From assembly GCF_053078305.1 (NCBI RefSeq), contig NZ_CP166879.1: DNA of 64,000 nt; one strand, written 5' to 3'. A program made the position numbers and the translations under genes. The notes under the pieces were generated by a model. That model did no database searches. It was not told the origin of the DNA and saw only the letters and a program-made list of their open reading frames with translations. Below are positions 14,569 to 64,000 of the stretch, in pieces (the stretch's first letter is position 1; each line of letters opens with the position of its first letter).

Positions 14569-15690
14569 ATGGTTGCTGAATTGACCGCATTACGCGATCA
14601 AATTGATGAAGTCGATAAAGCGCTGCTGAATTTATTAGCGAAGCGTCTGGAACTGGTTGCTGAAGTGGGAGAGGTGAAAAGCCGCTTTGGACTGCCTATT
14701 TATGTTCCGGAGCGAGAGGCATCTATGTTGGCCTCGCGTCGTGCAGAGGCGGAAGCTCTGGGTGTACCGCCAGATCTGATTGAGGATGTTTTGCGTCGGG
14801 TGATGCGTGAATCTTACTCCAGTGAAAACGACAAAGGATTTAAAACGCTTTGTCCTGCGTTACGCCCGGTAGTTATCGTTGGCGGCGGCGGTCAGATGGG
14901 ACGTCTGTTCGAGAAGATGCTGACACTCTCGGGTTATCAGGTGCGGATTCTGGAGCAACATGACTGGGATCGAGCGGCTGATATTGTTGCCGATGCCGGA
15001 ATGGTGATTGTTAGTGTGCCAATCCACGTTACTGAGCAAGTTATTGGCAAATTACCGCCTTTACCGAAAGATTGTATTCTGGTTGATCTGGCATCAGTGA
15101 AAAATGGACCATTACAGGCCATGCTGGCGGCGCACGATGGCCCGGTACTGGGGTTGCACCCGATGTTCGGCCCGGACAGCGGTAGCCTGGCAAAGCAAGT
15201 TGTGGTCTGGTGTGATGGACGTAAGCCGGAAGCATACCAATGGTTTCTGGAGCAAATTCAGGTCTGGGGCGCTCGGTTGCATCGTATTAGCGCTGTCGAG
15301 CACGATCAGAATATGGCGTTTATTCAGGCTCTGCGCCACTTTGCTACTTTTGCTTACGGGCTGCACCTGGCAGAAGAAAATGTTCAGCTTGAGCAACTTC
15401 TGGCGCTCTCTTCGCCGATTTACCGCCTTGAGCTGGCGATGGTCGGGCGACTGTTTGCTCAGGATCCGCAGCTTTATGCCGACATCATTATGTCGTCAGA
15501 GCGTAATCTGGCGTTAATCAAACGTTACTATAAGCGTTTCGGCGAGGCGATTGAGTTGCTGGAGCAGGGCGATAAGCAGGCGTTTATTGACAGTTTCCGC
15601 AAGGTGGAGCACTGGTTCGGCGATTACGCACAGCGTTTTCAGAGTGAAAGCCGCGTGTTATTGCGTCAGGCGAATGACAATCGCCAGTAA
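14569..15690 (+). CDS. tyrA: Bifunctional chorismate mutase / prephenate dehydrogenase (T-protein)
   Basis: 373-aa [33 protein letters not shown]... Confidence 0.95.
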
Positions 15691-53767: not shown

Positions 53768-53791
53768 AAATAATACCGTTCTCTTTAAAAA

Positions 53792-53835
53792 GTAAAACCC
53801 CCGAACTGGTAAGGAACGGGGGTTTTACTTTGTAA
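53792..53835 (+). terminator. acpS operon terminator
   Basis: GTAAAACCCCCG...CGGGGGTTTTAC hairpin followed by TTTGTAACTTT. Confidence 0.8.
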
Positions 53836-53844
53836 CTTTAATTT

Positions 53845-53868
53845 AGTGCAGCACGCACCCTCAACAAC
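53845..53868. repeat. 24-nt element, copy 1 of an imperfect direct repeat (second copy at 54093-54116)
   Basis: AGTGCAGCACGCACCCTCAACAAC; contains the internal palindrome GTGC...GCAC. Confidence 0.6.
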
Positions 53869-54462: not shown

Positions 54463-54732
<270 letters not shown>

Positions 54733-54937
54733 TTACCGTTAAATTATTTTAAAATCAGTAAGTTGTATCGAGTTTGTATGCTTTACAGTTATTAACTTAC
54801 TGTATGTTGATCCAGTGTATTTAACCTTGATAAACTCAGTCCAGCAACACAAAACCGCAACACATTGCATTTTGTCCCGTAGAAAAGACTTGTATGTGTG
54901 AGCTTGTTTTCTGCGCCTACGCAGATAAGGATTGAGA

Positions 54938-56335
54938 ATGCCGCGCACTGTAACACATAATCCGGATAGCCCCAATAATGACGATGTTTTAGCCGCATCT
55001 GAAAAATGGGACGCCTGTAAACCCCCCTATACCAGCGCACACATAAAAATCTGTGTTGCTGCCGCCAAAATCATCCTCGCAGCTTCCGGCGTGGCTCGCC
55101 GTTCCAAATACGAAAAAGAGAACTATCTCCGTATCGATTTCAGCAAAGCCGGTAAGGTTACATTTTACGCCGAGTTTCCAAAAAAGATGGGCCTCAAGGG
55201 TAAAAAGCTCGGCGAGTGGCCGGAGCTCGCTATCCAGCTGGCGCGCGAAAAAGCGCTAGGTATGGCTGACTGTGGCTTGCGGGCAGAGTCCGTACATGCA
55301 GCGCTGGAAATGTACCGGGATGACCTCAAAGCCAAAGTCGCCCGGCAGAAGCTGAGCCCGGACAGTTTCACAACCTACGGGGTGCGTATCGACCGGATTA
55401 AAGCAACGTTCGGCGAGCGTGAGGTGTTCAGCGACGTAACATACAATCGGCTAGTGGAAGTGCTGGACGAGTGGATCGCCACTCGCTCGAACAATAACGC
55501 CCTGGAGTTGTTTGCCGAGCTCCGTCGGTTCTGGAAGTTCTGCGCACCTACTCTTTGTAACGGTCGCAATGTTGCTGCCAGTCTGCCAGATGATTATGTT
55601 TCCTCCCGCGTACAGAAACCCACCCCCACACGGCTTTTTACCGATATTGAGTCAATCGCCCGGCTCTGGCTCAATGTTGCCGCCTGCACCTCTGTACACC
55701 AGAAGAATGCTGTTCGCTTCATGATCATCACCGGCGTTCGTCCGATTAATGTCCATAACCTGCGCTGGGACTACGTTCACGAGGAGACTGGCGAAATTGT
55801 TTATCCTGAAGGGGTTATCGGCATGCGAGGGGCTATGAAAACACAAAAGGCTTTCCGCCTGCCAATAACGCCGGAGATCCGGCGGATTATCGACGAGCAG
55901 AAAGCATGGCGTGATTCAGTTCCTGAGTGCAACAGGGATTATGTATTTTTGCAGCCGCGTGATCCAATGCAGCCATTTTCAAAACGATCACTGGATAAGC
56001 TAGTGAAAACATACAGCCCGGATGGGGCTGTAAAAGGATTAAAACATGATGGGACTGTTAAAGGGAAAGACGGTGCATTTAATACGATGTGCCGTAAATT
56101 CCTTAAGAGCAATGTTATTGCCTTGATGAAGGAAAGAGGCTATTCCCGATCAGACCGAAGGGAAATCAGCCTCCTTTGCCTTCACCACTCCAGCAAGTCA
56201 GATGACCCGATGGCAGAACATTACGACTTTTCTGATGAGATTTTGCAGGAAGAGATTGCGTTAAAGCGCGAAGCTTTCGAGGCTCACGAGCGGAGCATAC
56301 TTGCGCAGGTGGCATTGCTACGGCGGCGAGGTTAA
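54938..56335 (+). CDS. Putative site-specific integrase (tyrosine recombinase-like, P4-type N-terminal domain)
   Basis: About 465-aa ORF at the island edge, convergent with an AlpA-like gene; N-terminal region resembles integrase arm-binding domains; start codon uncertain (TTG at 54932 or ATG at 54938). Confidence 0.6.
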   Translation: MPRTVTHNPDSPNNDDVLAASEKWDACKPPYTSAHIKICVAAAKIILAASGVARRSKYEKENYLRIDFSKAGKVTFYAEFPKKMGLKGKKLGEWPELAIQLAREKALGMADCGLRAESVHAALEMYRDDLKAKVARQKLSPDSFTTYGVRIDRIKATFGEREVFSDVTYNRLVEVLDEWIATRSNNNALELFAELRRFWKFCAPTLCNGRNVAASLPDDYVSSRVQKPTPTRLFTDIESIARLWLNVAACTSVHQKNAVRFMIITGVRPINVHNLRWDYVHEETGEIVYPEGVIGMRGAMKTQKAFRLPITPEIRRIIDEQKAWRDSVPECNRDYVFLQPRDPMQPFSKRSLDKLVKTYSPDGAVKGLKHDGTVKGKDGAFNTMCRKFLKSNVIALMKERGYSRSDRREISLLCLHHSSKSDDPMAEHYDFSDEILQEEIALKREAFEAHERSILAQVALLRRRG

Positions 56336-56532
56336 TACCGGCTGCGACACTTTTGAATAAAAGCGTCGACATTGCGGCGCTCATAACGAACTACTTTTGC
56401 ACTGAAACGAATTGGTGCCAGGATAGCCCGATGACGATGCTTAATATTCCACTCACATAGCGTTTTCTGTGTAATACCTAACTTTTGGCATACTTCATCC
56501 GGGGTGAGTAAATCGTCGGGTTTCTCGCTCAT
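56332..56532 (-). CDS. AlpA/excisionase-family small DNA-binding protein
   Basis: 66-aa ORF LLTPDEVCQKLGITQKTLCEWN with HTH-like pattern; overlaps the upstream helicase stop by 4 nt. Confidence 0.6.
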   Translation of the reverse strand: MSEKPDDLLTPDEVCQKLGITQKTLCEWNIKHRHRAILAPIRFSAKVVRYERRNVDAFIQKCRSRY

Positions 56533-57923
56533 GCTATACCTCTCTTTTTCATGGCATCGAGCAGGATGTCCTGCACTGTTCGTTTTGAGTTGCGCCGCTC
56601 CATCACCATTTCGTCCATAGTGTCGGCAGCAATAATGTGGTGAATAAATACCGGACGATTGTGTCCGGCTTGTATCTGCCTGGTGGGGCCGATACGTTCA
56701 ATAATTTGCTGATATTGCTCCAGGTCCCACCAGTGTGAGAAAAATACCAGTATATTTCCGCCGTCTTGCATGTTCAGGCCGTGGCCCGCGCTGGCTGGGT
56801 GTGCAAAGAGAACAGGAATCTTTCCGGAATTCCAGTCGCGCAGTGTCTGTGGATCCTGGTCGAGGTGACGACCGCGAGGGAATGCTTTAAGCAAGCGTTC
56901 AAGATCGTGTTTCCAGTGATAAGCAACCAGCACAGGTGCGCCAGCTGCTTCGGCCAGTATGCTGTCCAGCGCCTGTAGTTTGGTGTCATGCAGTTCTGAC
57001 CAACTTCCGGTGTCGTCTGTGTATACTGCGCCACTGGCGATTTGAAGACACTTCAGTGTCTTTGCCGCGGCGTTCGGTGCTTCGATGCCTTCGCCATTCA
57101 GCTCGAGGAACATTTCCTTTTCCATTTCACGATACTGCTGACGGGCCTTCGGGGGCATATCCACGCGGATTACGTTATGGATGGGGTCTTTGATATCGAA
57201 CCAGTCGGCCGCATCCAGCGAGAGGGTCACATCGGCTAACGCTCGCTGTATTTCACCCTGTGAGTGAGCAAAAGGCTCCAGTTTGGTCCAGCTCTGCCCC
57301 GGAAACTGTATCGATTTGAACCAGCGTGAGGTAAATGCGCCGTAAGTGCGCCCGAGACGTTGCCCCAGGTCCACAAACCACGATTGTCCCCACAAATCTA
57401 CCAGGCCGTTCGGTGCTGGCGTACCGGTGAGATTTATCCAGCGCCGGACATACTTGTGCGCCACTTTGCCCAGCGCCGCCGCGCGCTTACCACCACCTCG
57501 CAGCCGGAAGGATTTTAGCCGGGTGCTTTCATCTGGAATGACAGTACCGAACGGCCATCGTTCTCCCAATTCCTCAACCAGCCAGACAAGGTTATCGTAG
57601 TTGATGGTGAACACGCTCGCGTTGTTGTTCGCCAACGCTGCAGAGCGCGCTTTGGCATTACCAACAATTGGTTGTACCTCGATATTGCGCAAATGCCCCC
57701 ACTTCAGTGCTTCATCCGGCCAGGTGTTTGCTGCAACGCGTAGCGGCGCGAGGACCAGCGCGGGGCGTGTTTCTGCTCCAGCCATGAAAAGATCTTCCAG
57801 CGTGGTGAGTGTCGCTACGGTTTTACCCATCCCCATCCCTGCCCAGATGTTGCCGCGCAGAATGTCGGTTTGGTGATTGATTATGAGGTTTTGATAAAGT
57901 CGGGGGTGGAATATGTTATTCAT
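56529..57923 (-). CDS. Phage-type SNF2/DEAD-like helicase
   Basis: Walker A GMGMGKT, motif II DEST, C-terminal helicase domain; start placed at the Met of MNNIFHPRLYQ (ORF track extends to 57998). Confidence 0.8.
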   Translation of the reverse strand: MNNIFHPRLYQNLIINHQTDILRGNIWAGMGMGKTVATLTTLEDLFMAGAETRPALVLAPLRVAANTWPDEALKWGHLRNIEVQPIVGNAKARSAALANNNASVFTINYDNLVWLVEELGERWPFGTVIPDESTRLKSFRLRGGGKRAAALGKVAHKYVRRWINLTGTPAPNGLVDLWGQSWFVDLGQRLGRTYGAFTSRWFKSIQFPGQSWTKLEPFAHSQGEIQRALADVTLSLDAADWFDIKDPIHNVIRVDMPPKARQQYREMEKEMFLELNGEGIEAPNAAAKTLKCLQIASGAVYTDDTGSWSELHDTKLQALDSILAEAAGAPVLVAYHWKHDLERLLKAFPRGRHLDQDPQTLRDWNSGKIPVLFAHPASAGHGLNMQDGGNILVFFSHWWDLEQYQQIIERIGPTRQIQAGHNRPVFIHHIIAADTMDEMVMERRNSKRTVQDILLDAMKKRGIA

Positions 57924-57985
57924 TAATACACCTATGGTAGAATATGTGTCAATTCTCTCTCTATATATAACTAACGGAGGCGGGT

Positions 57986-58783
57986 ATGCCCCTGGCAAAA
58001 ATACTTACAAAACAAGTTTCTTTATTAACTGTTTTTTCAGCGTTAGCTTATGTGATGGCATATTCTTTTCAGAAAGGTGTTGCATCGTATTATGGCTATC
58101 CAGCCCTTTTTATTAAAATAGATTTAAATACGCTATTGTATTCGGCTGTATGGCTTTTGTTTTTTAGTTTTTTATTTCTCGGTGCCTTATACGCGACATT
58201 GATGTTTGATTTGAAAGGGAAATATTATGTTCCATTTATTATATTTATAGTGGTTATGCTAATACCTAATTTTTACATAATAGGATTCCATTGGCCTTTT
58301 GGTTATTTCTCAGAAACCTCTGTGATGAGTGTTGGAGATATTTTATTATTTGCTCTGCTTTTGTTGAATTACCACAATGCGGTGTCCGCGTCAATCCATA
58401 GTAAGAGACACGAACATCATATGGATAGCATTAGAAAATTTGGGAGGCTTGCAGAGTATAAAGACGTATTTTATTATATCGATTTAAAAATCCTAAAATC
58501 AGCTTTTCCTTTAGGGGTGATGACATTATTGATATTGAGCTATACCTTCGGGAAGGTTACTGCATTTAAAAATAACGAATATTATATGGTAGATGGTAGT
58601 AATACTAAAGTGTTGCTCAATTCATTTGGTAGTGGTTTTGTTGTTGGTGATTGTGAGTCCAATAGCGCAAAATTTGAATTTGTTAATGATTTAAAAGGGA
58701 TGAAATTCACAGTCATGTCCTCTAAAAAGGAAATAGCTAAATTAAAAGAGTGTTTCGAAACACGTGTTAAAAATACGGATTAA
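57986..58783 (+). CDS. Hypothetical polytopic membrane protein (265 aa), AT-rich cargo gene
   Basis: GGAGG 7 bp upstream of the ATG; about five predicted hydrophobic helices plus a roughly 70-aa hydrophilic C-terminus; divergent from the helicase; no family recognised. Confidence 0.65.
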   Translation: MPLAKILTKQVSLLTVFSALAYVMAYSFQKGVASYYGYPALFIKIDLNTLLYSAVWLLFFSFLFLGALYATLMFDLKGKYYVPFIIFIVVMLIPNFYIIGFHWPFGYFSETSVMSVGDILLFALLLLNYHNAVSASIHSKRHEHHMDSIRKFGRLAEYKDVFYYIDLKILKSAFPLGVMTLLILSYTFGKVTAFKNNEYYMVDGSNTKVLLNSFGSGFVVGDCESNSAKFEFVNDLKGMKFTVMSSKKEIAKLKECFETRVKNTD

Positions 58784-58795
58784 AGTATAAGTCTT

Positions 58796-59083
58796 TTATC
58801 TTTTATTGCGGCTTAAAATAATTTCCTCCAGATTTTTGCTATCCAGCACCACCACGGTAAAGCCCAGCTCGCGCAGCCGCTTGTGCTCGCGCAACTGGTC
58901 GGCGCGTGGTGCTTTGCCGGGTGCTTTGCATTCAACGAAAACAAGACGGCCGCCGGGTAGCAGAACAATGCGATCCGGTACCGAGCGGCGACCAGGTGAT
59001 ATGAACTTAAAGGCGACCCCACCAGCCTTTTTCACTTCGGCGACGAGATGCTTCTCGATTAGGTTTTCACGTTCATATATCAT
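58796..59083 (-). CDS. VRR-NUC domain nuclease
   Basis: 95-aa ORF with PDRIVLLPGGRLVFVECKAPGKAPRADQLREHKRL, matching the VRR-NUC pattern of PD...(D/E)xK with a conserved Q. Confidence 0.8.
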   Translation of the reverse strand: MIYERENLIEKHLVAEVKKAGGVAFKFISPGRRSVPDRIVLLPGGRLVFVECKAPGKAPRADQLREHKRLRELGFTVVVLDSKNLEEIILSRNKR

Positions 59084-59125
59084 ATGACGTTTCCTTTAGC
59101 CCTCTAGTTTGAGGGCTGGGAATCT

Positions 59126-59677
59126 TTAGCGACGGCTGGGATGAATTTTTTCACGGAGAACTAAGGTTAGTTGTTCTAGTGTCAATGGCTCGCCAAAATT
59201 CTCATGAAATAATGGATTGAATACATGCATCATGCGTTCGTATGTTGCCAGCGAAGGCGTGTGAGAATTAAGATCTCTTAATTTGAATTCTTCAAATCTA
59301 TCCAGTTTATTGATGACGAAATCAGCGGCTGCAAGATACTCAGTTTCGTTATTTCCATCGAATCCTTTGAATATTGGATTTTTTCCAAATAACTCAACAT
59401 TTTCTTTTAACTTCTTTTTTTCTTCTTCTGTAAGTTCACTGTAGCTATATTCAATAACTCTCCACATATCTAGGATGTCTAGAACTTTTTTTACAACACG
59501 TGGAGTTTCGGTATTTTTAAATGGAATACCACTAAATTTCCAAGGGAGTGCCCATGTTTGGTTTTCGAATATAGCATCACGGACAAATGTGTGATCGATT
59601 TCGCCTTCAATCTCGTTTTTATCGTACAGGTCACACAGCATCATTAGAATTAGTTTTTCGCCATCTGAAAGTTGCAT
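59126..59677 (-). CDS. YfbU-family (UPF0304) protein, 183 aa, AT-rich cargo gene
   Basis: MQLSDGEKLILMMLCDLYD..., FKGFDGNNETEYL, HTPSLATYERMMHVF align with remembered E. coli YfbU motifs (AQRLILSNQYKMM, FLGFDAATEARYL, QTPMWEKYQRML). Confidence 0.65.
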   Translation of the reverse strand: MQLSDGEKLILMMLCDLYDKNEIEGEIDHTFVRDAIFENQTWALPWKFSGIPFKNTETPRVVKKVLDILDMWRVIEYSYSELTEEEKKKLKENVELFGKNPIFKGFDGNNETEYLAAADFVINKLDRFEEFKLRDLNSHTPSLATYERMMHVFNPLFHENFGEPLTLEQLTLVLREKIHPSRR

Positions 59678-59682
59678 GTTTT

Positions 59683-60192
59683 TTATCCTTGAGTGTTAAA
59701 CGTTAAATCATCAACGAGTAGATCTATGTGAGGTTGAATAGCCAATATTTTTGCATGCAAAACTCTACCTGTTCTTAACTTTTCCGCAGGAGTTTTTGCA
59801 TCTGAAAGCTCAGAAATATTTTCCCTTATTTCAGCACAAAAATTTTCTGAGTCTATGCTCAATTTTACTTTATTGTTAGGTTTTATTGCTTGGGCTGCAA
59901 ATAAATCGATGAAATCCTCTATTTCAGAAATTATTGGTTCTAAACTTATGCCTCGAACATTTTCCTCATTCGAACCAGGACCAATTGCTCTTAGAGATTT
60001 TATGGCGGTTGATAACTTTCCATGAAGGTTGCCTGCGTCCCTTATACTACGTTGATAATTGACCGTAGCTAAAGCCTTTTGAGCTTCTGTGGCGGCATCC
60101 CGCGACTTTTTCCACCCCCATAGTGAACACATAGCACCAACTATGGTAACAAAAGTACCTATCCTTGATAGCCAGACATCTGTATTTTCCAT
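59683..60192 (-). CDS. Hypothetical membrane-anchored protein (169 aa), first gene of a two-gene cassette with the YfbU-family gene
   Basis: Single N-terminal hydrophobic helix (IGTFVTIVGAMCSLWGW) then a charged helical region; 5-nt gap to the downstream ORF; AT-rich. Confidence 0.6.
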   Translation of the reverse strand: MENTDVWLSRIGTFVTIVGAMCSLWGWKKSRDAATEAQKALATVNYQRSIRDAGNLHGKLSTAIKSLRAIGPGSNEENVRGISLEPIISEIEDFIDLFAAQAIKPNNKVKLSIDSENFCAEIRENISELSDAKTPAEKLRTGRVLHAKILAIQPHIDLLVDDLTFNTQG

Positions 60193-60277
60193 TAAAGCAC
60201 CAAAAACAATCTGTTAAGGATAGCTATATGATACATATATCTTCAATGATGTCATGTATCTGATTTGTGAGCTGTGA

Positions 60278-62341
60278 TCAGTCCTTACGGTAGTGGTACG
60301 CCTCAAAACCGCCAGCGTTCAGTGGGATATCGGGCGCCCATTCGGGGTTAGTGGAGAGAAGCGCGGAAAGCGCTTTATCGTTGAAATCTTCTGTGTCAGG
60401 TGCTTCGGTGATCACCTCGTCGTGTACCGTCAGCACAATGCTGTAACCGGCATCTTCGATAAGCGGCATGTTTCCGGCCAGAACGTCGCGGGCGGCCGCT
60501 TGGGTGACGTTCTCCACCAGCTTTCCGCCGTAGGTTTTGAGTCGTTGCCATTTACGTGAATAAGAGTTAACACCCATATAGGTGATATTCCCTTTTTCGA
60601 TAATCGGAGACGGGTAGCATACAGCGCGTCCAGATGGCAGCTGTATGCGCAGCCACGCGCCATCACGTCGGATTTTAAGATAGCCGCAATACAATGTTTT
60701 TTGCGGTGTGGCGATTGCAGTGCGGACGGTGCGCTCCAGTTCGTACCAGAAATCACAGGTCGCGGGATGCGCCCGGCGCCAGAGACGTTTAAGTGAGTCG
60801 CAGGCGATAAATACCCGTTCAGAAAGCCCGTAGGTTGACTTGCGTTTAACCGATTCGTCGTACCAGCTTTTCGCCTCGCGGATAACATCGCGGGGAATGT
60901 TTGGTAGTGCGGCGTTCGCCAGCTCGTCGAGATCGAGACCGTAAACCAGTGCAAAAGTGATGAAGGCCGACACACCACCACCATAACCCAGACCGAGTTC
61001 CATGACTTTACCGATCTGACGCATGTGTTTATCAACATCATCTGGTGCAATATCGAAAGCTTTTGCATACGCCAGTTTATATAAGTCCGGACCCGTTCCG
61101 GCGTCGTACTCTCTGAATGCATTCAGTTTCCATTCTTCTCCCGCCAGCCATGCCAGCATACGGCCTTCAATGTTCGACAAGTCACTTACCACCAGCTTTT
61201 TGCCTGTTGGCGCGATAATGCAGCCACGTAACGCTGAACTGGTTAGTTCCATGATATTGTCAAACAGCAGGTCTGCACATCCGGCTTTCAGTGCTTCGAT
61301 GCCTTCGTCTATTTGTTCCTGTTTTAGTGAAGGGCGGGGAAGGTTCTGGGGCTGGAATAGCCGTCCGGCCCAACGACCGGTACGTGACGCCCCGCAGAAC
61401 TGTAGCGTACCGCGTAAGCGCCCGTCGTGGCTTACGCCTTTCATCAGTGCCTTGTATTTACTGGTGCTGGTAGTACTGGCCTGCAGGCGGATAGCCAGCA
61501 GTTCTTTCACGGCAGATGGTAAATCGGGGTCGGCAATACGACGTTCCAGAGTACTGCGTTGCATGTCTGGTAGCTCCACACCGTAGGATTCAACAATGTG
61601 CTTAATCAACGCGTCTCGTTGTGTGGCTGCCTGCACTTCGCCATCAGTCATTTCCTGTGTACGCTTTGCCAGGCGCTTTTGTTCCTGGTCTACCGCGTCG
61701 ATCGCAGCGCGTGCGAGTTCCACGTCCATGCAGACGCCCCGGTCATTGATCTGCTGATCACGATGCCAGAGCGCCAGTTCTGTCCCCTGATAATTCCACT
61801 TCGGCAGACGTTTATAGACTTCGCGCATTGCCTCGATATCCAGTCCGGCGTAAGCAACAAAGCGCCGCCATTCTTCCGGGTGGGTTTTGCTGGTGGCCCG
61901 GCGCAGTTTGCTGTTTTTCGGGCGTGGCTTACAGAACAGCTGGATCAGCGCTTTACCTTCTTTGTCCTTCGCTTTGTCTTGCGGGACGCCTAGTACTTCG
62001 CAGAGTTCCCCCAGAGACCCCGGGAGACCGTGCGCCAGCGCCTGCACCATTGTGTCGCGCCAACGTTCGACTGGCGGTGCCAGGCGCGGCATTGCATAAC
62101 GCAGAACGGTGCGGTCGAAGTGAGAGTTATGGAAATAAAGCAGGGTTTCAGGGTCTGCGATTGCTTCGTATAAGCCGTGTGGAATACCACCACCGGCAGT
62201 GATATCCCACACGTTTACTGGCCCGTCGTTGATAGCCCATGCGAAAAGCATCACTTCAACGCCTTCGGCATACGCATGGGTACCGTTCGTAATAGGGATT
62301 TCGCAATAGGTTTCCAGGTCGCCCCATAGTATATTGGACAT
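60278..62341 (-). CDS. Phage-type family A DNA polymerase with 3-prime-5-prime exonuclease domain
   Basis: 687-aa ORF; Exo I DLETY; pol motifs DLSNIEGR (A), [16 protein letters not shown] (B), HDEVITE (C). Confidence 0.88.
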
Positions 62342-62387
62342 GTGTTTACCTTGGTTTTTATTCTATTAACTGATTAAAAGATTAATT

Positions 62388-63017
62388 ATGCATATGATCC
62401 AATACTTGATTGACCATACAGAGCATCTGGAGAAAATAGCTGGATATATTTTTTCATGTTTGATTGTTATGGGAGTCTGGATAAGAAAGATCATTTTTAA
62501 TTATAAGTATAAAGAGCCTAAATATGTCAAGAAGTTAATTTTATATTTAGTTAAGTATGAACGTTATCTGGATGAGGAGGATAAGAGTGCCATAGAAAAA
62601 AGAATAAATGATAAAATTATTCGTGATGCGCTGAAATTGCAATCCTCTTATAACCGAAGAGATGTTATTTACATTTGCAATAGATTAGAAAAAAGACAGT
62701 ATATAAATCAGTTGATTAAGCTTCAGAATTATATAGAGAAAGATAACGGAGTGTTTTTTATTAATGTTGATTTTTCAGGTTTTTTATTTATTATTAGTCG
62801 TCTGTTTTCCTTTCTGTGTTTTGTGCTGTTTACCCTTTTTTCTATTATCTGCATTATTTCCATAGGGCAAAATGAAGGCCTTTTAAATTATCTTGTGTAT
62901 ATGGTTATGATAATAGTTTTAGAGACTGTTGGTTTTTGGATGTATGATACTTTCCCGTCTAAGAAAAAGATCTGTGAACTAAATAAAGAATTGAGAAAGA
63001 TTAAGATTCCTGAGTGA
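62388..63017 (+). CDS. Hypothetical membrane protein (209 aa), very AT-rich cargo gene
   Basis: ORF divergent from the polymerase; predicted N-terminal helix and two C-terminal hydrophobic helices; Lys/Ile/Tyr-rich; no family recognised. Confidence 0.55.
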   Translation: MHMIQYLIDHTEHLEKIAGYIFSCLIVMGVWIRKIIFNYKYKEPKYVKKLILYLVKYERYLDEEDKSAIEKRINDKIIRDALKLQSSYNRRDVIYICNRLEKRQYINQLIKLQNYIEKDNGVFFINVDFSGFLFIISRLFSFLCFVLFTLFSIICIISIGQNEGLLNYLVYMVMIIVLETVGFWMYDTFPSKKKICELNKELRKIKIPE

Positions 63018-63069
63018 TTATACGCCTAATCAGTAGCCCGGTGTTTAACCGGGCGTCTATGAAGTAGGG

Positions 63070-63618
63070 TTAAATTAGTGCTTCAGCATCAGCACCTTCG
63101 CTGATATCGTCGAAATCGTCAGCGCTTGCCACTCCGCCGCCAGCGAATGCATCGCCGTCTCGCAGGAACTGGACTCCGCCGAGTGAGGCATTAATGCGTT
63201 TACCGAAATTATTGTCCTGTGCCCAGATATCGATAACGGCGTTTACATAGCACCCTGCATAGGGACGTCCGTCAGCCTGAATAAGTGGCGAACGATCGCG
63301 ATCAAGAACAGCTGGGCGCGCTTTGTTAGCAGCATTCAGGAAGAAATTACCGGGGAAGCCTTCATACTCTGCTTTTTCATCACCATCATGCAGGCACAGA
63401 TTGAGTTTTTTCTCCAGCTGGTTATAAATGGGCTCCCACTTCTCTCCCCATTTTTCCTTCGCTACCTGCTTCATAGCTTTACGGATTTCTTCCAGTTGTG
63501 GGTGTTTGGGAGACATTAAAAATACTGCGGAGAAACGCGGATCGCCTTCGCCGTTTACAGTTTTAGCTTCAAACAGAGACGGGAAGGCCAGACGAACATT
63601 GTTCAGCTTCAGTTTCAT
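63070..63618 (-). CDS. DUF2815-like phage replication-module protein
   Basis: 182-aa ORF MKLKLNNVRLAFPSLFEAK... with acidic C-terminal tail; sits between a DUF2800-like gene and the polymerase as in other phages. Confidence 0.6.
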   Translation of the reverse strand: MKLKLNNVRLAFPSLFEAKTVNGEGDPRFSAVFLMSPKHPQLEEIRKAMKQVAKEKWGEKWEPIYNQLEKKLNLCLHDGDEKAEYEGFPGNFFLNAANKARPAVLDRDRSPLIQADGRPYAGCYVNAVIDIWAQDNNFGKRINASLGGVQFLRDGDAFAGGGVASADDFDDISEGADAEALI

Positions 63619-63633
63619 GGGTATTTCCTTAAA

Positions 63634-64000
63634 TCAGATGAGGTCTGCGGTTAGCGTATCGTCGGATACGTCGTCGAAATCATTTACAGGGTTGATATTG
63701 AGTGCGGGGCGTGGGTCTGACTCGGGAACGACGGTTGGTTTACCATCAGCTCGTGTTATCAGTGCCTCGACTTTTGACCAACGGCGTGGACTGGCCTTTT
63801 TGATAAGTTTTTCGGCTTTTGTGGGACTAATAAGTTTAAAGTCGAATACTTCTTCAGTTTTGTACCTGAACTGGTCCTTCAGAAGTGCGCGAGCTGCCTC
63901 TTCATCACTCCAGGCCCGGTTACCTTGTTTTCCTGTTACCAGTTTAAACCCCGGTACCGGATGTCCGGCATTGAGTTCATTGTGAACCCGGTCCCGTACT
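63634..64000 (-). CDS. C-terminal part of a DUF2800-like (PD-(D/E)xK-type) phage protein; 5-prime end lies beyond the window
   Basis: Manual translation of the minus strand gives an open frame from the window end to TGA at 63634-63636 (...GKQGNRAWSDEEAARALLKDQF...VNDFDDVSDDTLTADLI); not in the ORF track because it has no start in the window. Confidence 0.5.
   Translation of the reverse strand, partial: VRDRVHNELNAGHPVPGFKLVTGKQGNRAWSDEEAARALLKDQFRYKTEEVFDFKLISPTKAEKLIKKASPRRWSKVEALITRADGKPTVVPESDPRPALNINPVNDFDDVSDDTLTADLI

Follow-up and report, generated by a model that had tools for sequence, protein, structure and literature searches.

How do AT-rich genes come to lie at three gene boundaries of a phage replication operon, and what might they do there? 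The question is raised by a stretch of 64,000 nucleotides from contig NZ_CP166879.1 (NCBI RefSeq assembly GCF_053078305.1), which in its full length is here called the window. From 54.7 to 64.0 kb the window holds the left arm, next to the integration site, of a temperate phage that has entered the Escherichia coli gene yfhL at its 5' end. Taken as a whole, the locus is probably best explained as an arm of the BPP-1/APSE type whose replication operon has three exchangeable cargo slots, filled in the window by genes of defence type. The operon itself would comprise a DUF2800 nuclease, a Gp2.5-like single-stranded DNA-binding protein (SSB), a family A DNA polymerase (PolA), a VRR-NUC nuclease, an SNF2 helicase and an AlpA-like gene. 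Prophage hotspots are among the most productive sources of new bacterial immune systems. Here three precisely delimited slots lie within one operon, and dozens of their occupants are uncharacterised.

Each of the three AT-rich insertions begins right after the stop codon of one gene and ends at the start codon of the next, so that the preliminary description of this DNA was right to place them exactly at gene boundaries. The core genes mostly have a GC fraction of about 0.5-0.57, against 0.30-0.37 in the slots. Slot 1 (57927-58795, GC 0.33), between the VRR-NUC and helicase genes, contains one opposite-strand gene. Slot 2 (59084-60277, GC 0.37), between the PolA and VRR-NUC genes, contains a two-gene cassette with its own promoter-like site. 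Slot 3 (62342-63069, GC 0.30), between the DUF2815 and PolA genes, contains one opposite-strand gene and a hairpin.

The preliminary description had further predicted that the three boundaries would behave as accessory hotspots, and comparison with related loci bears this out. Relatives were gathered via the polymerase, 11 of them from annotated E. coli and 80 from IMG/VR, which gives 92 loci with the window; core genes were located by tblastn and every junction was measured. Across the 91 related loci these three junctions are hypervariable, while adjacent ones are fixed. Slot 1 ranges from -1 to 2055 bp and falls into 35 sequence types in 90 loci, 10 loci having the junction at 177 bp. Slot 2 ranges from 215 to 1822 bp (38 sequence types in 91 loci) and slot 3 from 73 to 2556 bp (23 sequence types in 86 loci), with 19 loci in which slot 3 is empty at about 80 bp (73-81 bp). 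The junction between h903 and the DUF2800 gene, on the other hand, is only 2-3 bp long in the majority of loci; four distant relatives have 59-60 bp there and six loci a 513-bp NUMOD4/HNH insert, and that between the DUF2800 and DUF2815 genes measures 10-16 bp, with a 526-bp HNH insert once. The HNH/NUMOD4 homing endonucleases found at these otherwise fixed junctions (for example at 14741-15259 of locus L005 and 6212-6727 of L010) are selfish elements, unlike the slot cargo.

Slot contents turn over much faster than the backbone that carries them. Pairs of loci with 98-99.5% identical polymerase genes have the slot type in common in only 9% of cases for slot 1, 24% for slot 2 and 30% for slot 3, and identical cargo is found on backbones of only 78-80% identity. 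The slots also assort independently, with 72 slot combinations in the 85 loci that have all three. The cassettes of the window occur in 16 (slot 1), 4 (slot 2) and 66 (slot 3) complete E. coli genomes, and none of 5,426 such genomes has all three together. Empty or minimal states measure -1 or 177 bp in slot 1, 215 bp in slot 2 and 73-81 bp in slot 3. These junctions thus combine fixed positions, non-homologous alternatives, empty or minimal states, rapid turnover and independent assortment, as hotspots do.

How the cargo is exchanged is suggested by the breakpoints. Homology between slot types is lost at the stop codon of the gene on one side; on the other side it is lost either at the start codon of the next gene or a few codons inside that gene. 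A repeat search found no direct or inverted repeats flanking the cassettes, and models of cargo gain by transposons, integron cassettes or site-specific recombination were rejected for the want of them. Since the breakpoints fall at or just inside gene termini, flanking repeats are absent and the slots reassort independently, we infer that cargo is exchanged by homologous recombination in the conserved flanking genes. The operon would thus tolerate foreign genes at three intergenic junctions, and relatives would swap them by means of the genes on either side. Slot 3 contains in addition a GC-rich hairpin, GCCCGGTGTTTAACCGGGC (63036-63054), directly after the DUF2815 stop codon. The hairpin follows this stop codon in most slot 3 types, and in some it is repeated at the opposite end of the cargo. 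In the empty slot 3 of L052 and others a T-run comes after it, so that it resembles an intrinsic terminator, here one that would separate the SSB gene from the polymerase gene of the same operon.

What, then, do the slots of the window carry? The slot 2 cassette encodes two proteins on the minus strand, with 5 bp between the genes. The first gene (59683-60192) encodes an all-helical protein of 169 amino acids (aa), modelled by AlphaFold2 (AF2; mean confidence, pLDDT, 82) as a long N-terminal hydrophobic helix with a four-helix bundle. The second, downstream gene (59126-59677) encodes a 183-aa YfbU-domain protein (PF03887, E 5e-21, residues 1-171; PDB 1WPB/4LR3, E 1.3e-05). Although chromosomal E. 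coli YfbU (PDB 1WPB, 4LR3) has the PF03887 domain in common with this protein, the latter scores 57 bits against the 90-bit equivalog cutoff of chromosomal YfbU, by which it is not an orthologue, and aligns in phmmer over only about half of its length. It is also mobile, AT-rich and paired with a partner gene, in contrast to its chromosomal namesake. Just after the polymerase stop codon lies a promoter-like site, ATGACA-16-TATCAT (60255-60228), with 10 of 12 consensus matches. The site, with a spacing of 16 or 17, accompanies the YfbU cassette in five contexts.

The two genes travel together. They are adjacent in all eight contexts with a readable neighbour, namely the window prophage, four other elements and three distant homologues. 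One such pair borders icd where a Morganella lambdoid prophage ends, another belongs to an integrative island that has further conflict systems, with AAA_23/MC2/CTD6 genes as its neighbours, and another is on a Raoultella IncFII plasmid, where the partner and YfbU proteins are 47% and 66% identical to those of the window. The sources of the pair include a contig close to a Citrobacter koseri protein. It is also present in a decayed copy of the same replication module with truncated SNF2 and DUF2800 genes (L096, 10617-16450); this copy has a Wadjet-like MksBEF+DUF7281 cluster and a BrxR-type regulator as immediate neighbours. By profile search the partner family comprises 77 clusters, and a YfbU gene adjoins three of three distant members with a readable neighbour. 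On one metagenome contig (L114, 559-8498) the pair is in reverse order; the genes around it encode a 963-aa SNF2 helicase, an N6_N4 methylase, and an AAA_15/AAA_21 ATPase accompanied by a DUF4276 protein, a grouping that has the look of a composite defence island. Solitary YfbU genes are found as well, in a Yersinia P2-like phage and on a Xanthomonas plasmid. On plasmid pBB1 of Cupriavidus necator (L110, 2501-3801) a YfbU gene is followed, with overlapping stop and start codons, by a 248-aa open reading frame (ORF) that has an FRGQ motif and looks FRG-like by eye. The partner of YfbU may therefore vary from one lineage to another.

A role for the pair can be proposed by analogy. Kamadhenu, an abortive-infection (Abi) system of lactococcal plasmids, is a single YfbU-domain protein whose activity has been shown experimentally and whose escape mutants map to a Sak-like single-strand annealing protein (SSAP) of the phage (PMC11381338, PMC12184496). 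The window pair would then be a Kamadhenu-like abortive-infection module.

The other two slots of the window encode membrane proteins. The slot 1 gene (57986-58783, plus strand) encodes 265 aa with five predicted long hydrophobic helices and a small C-terminal beta domain (AF2, pLDDT 77.5). Its homologues are tagged Pfam PF27470 'TfpB', a name for which a literature search returned only unrelated uses, and they are also found in an Enterobacter lambdoid prophage, between dinI and a lambda-P-like replication gene. Six slot 1 types encode members of this TfpB-like family, at 21-27% identity and with invariant G221, C223, F230 and C256; the two invariant cysteines belong to the small C-terminal beta domain. 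The slot 3 gene (62388-63017, plus strand) encodes a 209-aa membrane protein with one N-terminal and three C-terminal hydrophobic segments (phrog_10579, E 3e-108) and is a remote homologue of two other slot 3 cargo families with the same architecture (hhalign 94%, E 1.2e-07). Sequence comparison thus places both proteins in diversifying membrane-protein families. Hypervariable membrane proteins encoded on the opposite strand at a fixed prophage position resemble superinfection-exclusion genes, and for this reason the two may act at the envelope as exclusion factors. Compared with a moron, an autonomous transcription unit within a prophage, the slots differ clearly in composition from their flanks, and a promoter-like site accompanies the YfbU cassette; slots 1 and 3 show weak consensus matches to a promoter only. 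Scans of the four cargo proteins of the window against Pfam, PHROG and NCBIfam returned only the YfbU domain and an unannotated PHROG.

Could such genes simply be passengers, neutral or selfish DNA that is junk, silenced by H-NS or decaying, and that persists without benefit where a compact operon tolerates insertion? Their GC fraction of 0.30-0.37 is typical of xenogeneic DNA, selfish HNH/NUMOD4 endonucleases do insert at other junctions, and several relatives have frameshifted slot genes, such as the ANR gene of IAI1. However, the four cargo ORFs of the window are intact and 99% identical to proteins on many contigs, and in the YfbU pair neither gene nor the promoter has been lost where the proteins have diverged to 47% and 66% identity. 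Selection at the protein level is indicated for the slot 1 and slot 3 families, too, whose architecture and invariant residues persist although identity is down to 21-27%. We therefore consider the passenger explanation very improbable.

The slots of the relatives show what company the window cargo keeps. When the slot ORFs were clustered, about 75 protein families resulted, a number of which are spurious ORFs. Slot 1 in relatives carries BstA (E 2.5e-110) in 11 loci, in some of them with a Dcm methylase alongside, and PDC-S42 (E 6e-40) in 5 loci, where it is accompanied by a membrane protein. A 305-aa TIR-like protein, DUF6338 and Rha/Arc regulators also occur in this slot. Slot 2 carries a 253-aa TIR protein that corresponds to PDC-S35 (E 7e-109; 26 loci), a HATPase_c protein, Bro-N, small ANR-family and DUF4406 genes, an N6 methylase and a PAPS reductase. 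Slot 3 carries a 500-aa SIR2 protein that corresponds to PDC-S25 (E 4e-158), DUF4145, an SPFH lipoprotein and Nmad5 (19 loci). At least one gene matching a PADLOC model (BstA, PDC-S35, PDC-S25 or PDC-S42) is found in 42 of the 92 loci, a plain count made with no background comparison. A literature search on the PDC systems and on the names of these phages returned nothing relevant. BstA together with three PADLOC candidate systems in the same hotspots implicates the uncharacterised cargo by association.

Two sorts of cargo can be told apart in this repertoire. The first would consist of self-contained units that are AT-rich for the most part and in many cases either lie on the opposite strand or have a promoter of their own. 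Probably expressed from the prophage, they would defend the lysogen when other phages attack it, through abortive infection or superinfection exclusion. The second would consist of same-strand genes for Dcm, N6 and D12 methylases, Nmad5 and PAPS reductase, which probably protect the DNA of the phage itself. All three slots of the window appear to hold the first sort: a TfpB-like polytopic membrane protein, a YfbU cassette with a sigma-70-like promoter, and a second membrane protein; this cargo would be expressed in the lysogen. The hotspots as a group mix units of defence type with DNA-modification genes, the latter being more likely to guard the phage genome.

There is also a different explanation, in which the slot genes, as part of an early operon, serve the lytic cycle of the phage in counter-defence, DNA modification, host takeover or as replication accessories. 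Many cargo genes of relatives do lie on the replication strand and are DNA-modifying (Dcm, N6_N4 and D12 methylases, Nmad5, PAPS reductase), slot 2 commonly contains small ANR-family and DUF4406 genes, and in the window itself the YfbU pair is on the operon strand. The slot 1 and slot 3 genes of the window, however, run opposite to the operon. The YfbU pair is accompanied by its conserved promoter outside phages too, and is also found on a plasmid and in defence islands. For BstA, moreover, a defence function in prophages has been shown by experiment, while TIR, SIR2 and PDC-S42 are matches to models of defence candidates. On balance a lytic-cycle role for the slot genes seems unlikely, though clearly less so than the passenger explanation.

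A number of observations nevertheless weigh against a defence role for the window cargo. PADLOC has no match for any of the four proteins, and no phenotype is known for any of them. The 169-aa protein has no family match, its PDB sequence search was empty and its structure search returned only generic four-helix bundles; its N-terminal helix is below the standard hydropathy threshold, so that membrane anchoring is uncertain. The fold search with the slot 1 protein gave no match either. A general scan for promoters and terminators was not enriched over shuffled sequence, and the YfbU cassette, being on the replication-gene strand, could be read through in lytic growth. Among the relatives, the PDC systems are candidates and not validated defences, and many slot 2 genes (ANR-family, DUF4406 and small ORFs) resemble ordinary early phage genes. 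Finally, the GenBank 'phage' records related to the element contain host genes and are thus no proof that this phage type is inducible.

Set against the evidence of position, conservation and association, these points leave defence cargo the preferred explanation, and a more specific picture can be put forward, tentatively and with rather more doubt than confidence. In this picture the helical partner and YfbU form an undescribed two-gene anti-phage system, widespread in Proteobacteria on prophages, islands and plasmids. YfbU would react to recombination or ssDNA-annealing proteins of the phage, an idea suggested by the Kamadhenu escape mutants, and the partner with its hydrophobic helix would be the effector or a regulator. 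The TfpB-like and slot 3 families would be new, fast-diversifying superinfection-exclusion factors. If this were true, the three-slot operon would, in a small space, be as useful for the discovery of new systems as the P2/P4 hotspots. The window supplies three candidate cargo units, of which the YfbU pair is the most consistent in the conservation of its neighbour and promoter across unrelated mobile elements, and it is plausibly linked to a shown Abi that is triggered by a phage recombination protein. It also raises a question of self-immunity, the YfbU cassette lying inside a replication module that encodes an ssDNA-annealing protein of its own.

The operon that hosts these genes is otherwise a conventional one. 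The preliminary description named a set of replication genes, all on the minus strand, and Pfam and PHROG matches confirm each of them, the DUF2800 gene as a C-terminal fragment only. The coordinates given for the module, 60278-64000, were correct in part: they enclose the polymerase, slot 3, the DUF2815 gene and part of the DUF2800 gene, but the module as described starts at 56332 and runs past the end of the window, so that they take in only its right-hand third. In order of transcription, the DUF2800 gene (PD-(D/E)xK exonuclease family; 63634-64000) is cut by the window end, which leaves the C-terminal 121 aa (PF10926, E 4.9e-21, profile positions 275-368 of 368) of a protein that measures 433 aa at full length in the relative L001. 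It is followed by the gene for the DUF2815 or Enc34-type (Gp2.5-like) ssDNA-binding and annealing protein (63070-63618; PF10991, E 7.6e-44; phrog_112, E 6e-57), and by that for the family A DNA polymerase with an N-terminal 3'-5' exonuclease domain (60278-62341; PF00476, E 6e-14; phrog_17, E 6e-127). The nuclease of the VRR-NUC or PD-(D/E)xK type (58796-59083) matches phrog_93 'endonuclease' (E 1e-29), has the PD...ExK motif in the form PD...ECK and has RefSeq orthologues named VRR-NUC; the Pfam VRR_NUC match taken alone is weak and sub-threshold (E 0.032). The SNF2-family helicase (56529-57926; PF00176, E 1.7e-12; phrog_62, E 3e-154) starts at ATG 57926 according to the annotation of its orthologues, whereas the listed ORF opens at TTG 57998. 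The last gene on this strand encodes an AlpA-like HTH_17 protein (56332-56532; PF12728, E 1.3e-05, 25.8 bits with a cutoff of 27; phrog_4745, E 4e-27), probably an excisionase or regulator. It overlaps the helicase gene by the four nucleotides ATGA (56529-56532), which hold the helicase stop and the AlpA-like start, in agreement with the translational overlap reported earlier.

The polymerase motifs are intact, as had been claimed. In an alignment with 8JRB and Taq, motifs A (DLSNIE), B (RQIGK...YG) and C (VHDE) coincide with the catalytic residues of Pol I and Taq, and Exo I-III are recognisable by eye as GDLE, HNSHFD and YAGLD. The element may be able to replicate autonomously, as the motifs had been taken to suggest, but its primase-helicase gene and any origin would be situated beyond the window. 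Replication genes are not always kept in this family. In the relative from enterotoxigenic E. coli H10407 (L008, 8001-14298) the polymerase gene is frameshifted and the SNF2 helicase gene has an internal stop, yet the slot 1 BstA-family gene (309 aa, annotated as hypothetical) and the Dcm gene are still intact, which suggests that cargo is kept while replication genes decay.

Beyond the AlpA-like gene the arm ends with the integrase and the attachment site. The tyrosine integrase (54938-56335, plus strand; PF00589, E 5.5e-07; phrog_1, E 5e-26) has RefSeq orthologues of 465 aa. The attachment (att) core common to attL and attR is the 18-bp sequence TTCACACATATCACAATT (54676-54693), which lies within codons ~11-16 of yfhL, prophage DNA extending rightward from about 54694. 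It is the longest word common to window positions 54651-54960 and the right end of a related prophage record (L098), where it adjoins a native yfhL 5' fragment. Because the core recurs beside this fragment, the phage must integrate within the first ~16 codons of yfhL, a 4Fe-4S ferredoxin gene, and supply a replacement 5' end. In the region 54463-54940 the rebuilt gene has phage-derived first codons, so that the protein starts with MSLLITKR in place of the native MALLITKK, and a phage-derived AT-rich upstream region; its transcription in lysogens is therefore presumably driven from phage DNA. The preceding sequence, from 44 to 54.7 kb, is by synteny with annotated genomes ordinary E. coli chromosome (rpoE-rseABC-lepAB-rnc-era-recO-pdxJ-acpS, shoB/ohsC and yfhL). 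The chromosomal shoB/ohsC type I toxin-antitoxin locus lies just outside the prophage, with the ohsC antitoxin small RNA at 53789-53865 (Rfam RF02495, 103 bits). Scans of the prophage module found no tRNA or Rfam element within it.

Since the window shows only the arm from integrase to DUF2800, the element might conceivably be a phage-derived integrative island or satellite with replication and integration genes alone, and decayed copies of the module without structural genes do exist (L096, L105). The window genes are intact, however, and the 11 annotated E. coli relatives at the yfhL site run, within the stretches fetched, into repressor, primase, lysis and structural genes. An island or satellite is consequently a most improbable description, the least probable of those considered. 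The temperate prophage that we favour is well represented by its closest E. coli match, in strain O55:H7 CB9615 (97.7% identity over 91% of the query), where the element continues into genes for a LexA-like repressor, a VapE primase-helicase, a Q antiterminator, lysis, terminase, portal, head and contractile tail. As prophages the E. coli relatives are complete, with a length of about 42-45 kb. The polymerase gene is present in 158 of the 5,426 complete E. coli genomes (about 3%), with the yfhL site in every copy fetched, and relatives among IMG/VR viral contigs have polymerases down to 85% protein identity. The records vB_EcoM-606R2, 689R2 and 611R5 (97% matches) were rejected as proof of inducibility after 606R2, the record examined, was found to carry host genes. 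This 'complete phage genome' (GenBank ON470579; L098) opens, at 1-2254, with the host genes tadA, pgpC and yfhH and stops at the helicase. Such a record would be expected from a predicted prophage that was cut out of a host genome, or from an assembly with wrong limits, and not from a packaged genome.

Comparison with known phages places the arm in a familiar lineage. The module had been called a recognisable phage replication gene set, and its genes, order and orientation are indeed those of the temperate phages BPP-1 of Bordetella (Rauchvirus) and APSE-1/APSE-2 of Hamiltonella (Sendosyvirus), the APSE phages being phages of an aphid symbiont. The common order is DUF2800 exonuclease, Gp2.5-like SSB, PolA, small endonuclease, helicase, excisionase and integrase at the genome end; the genes are colinear and in a single orientation, with excisionase and integrase last, beside the attachment site. 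The SSB proteins of BPP-1 and APSE-2 have 55-66% identity to that of the window. Extra genes lie at the SSB|PolA and endonuclease|helicase junctions, the only ones at which any were seen in APSE-2, and this cargo is unrelated to that of the window family. A correspondence between the toxin cassette of APSE and one of the three slots is conjectural. The phages differ in host and attachment site, the yfhL 5' end here as against tRNA-Arg in APSE-2, and in structural genes, the E. coli relatives having sheath and tube genes whereas the name of the BPP-1-like record, vB_BbrP, marks a podovirus. To judge by gene content and order, the element joins a known replication-integration module of the BPP-1/APSE type to a different structural module.

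The hotspots, too, are of a known kind. P2-like prophages and P4-like satellites carry defence hotspots (Rousset et al., bioRxiv 10.1101/2021.01.21.427644) that resemble the present ones in their fixed intergenic positions, their many unrelated and often AT-rich alternatives, and a turnover that is fast relative to the backbone, and hotspots of this kind have been reported from other prophages too. The present hotspots differ in belonging to another phage family, in lying all three inside one replication operon and not at P2/P4-specific loci, and in the methylase and Nmad5 cargo that is mixed in. No earlier account of these three hotspots, of such behaviour in this phage family or of the partner-YfbU pair was found in the literature searched, the coverage of which was incomplete.

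Two experimentally characterised systems bear most directly on the cargo. BstA is a prophage-encoded Abi (Owen et al. 2021, PMC8585504), and a full-length homologue, a single opposite-strand prophage gene, occupies slot 1 in the 11 related loci noted above, the window itself being without BstA. A survey of E. coli defence islands found bstA only in lambda-like prophages at the tRNA-Arg hotspot (PMC10121019), as opposed to the PolA-type prophage at yfhL in which it occurs here. Kamadhenu resembles the second gene of the slot 2 pair in that a protein of about 180 aa consists of a YfbU domain and is encoded on a mobile element alongside other defences, a likeness at the level of the domain. Kamadhenu is nonetheless a single gene in a Gram-positive host, whereas the window YfbU departs from this single-gene organisation and is always paired with a helical partner of 165-175 aa.

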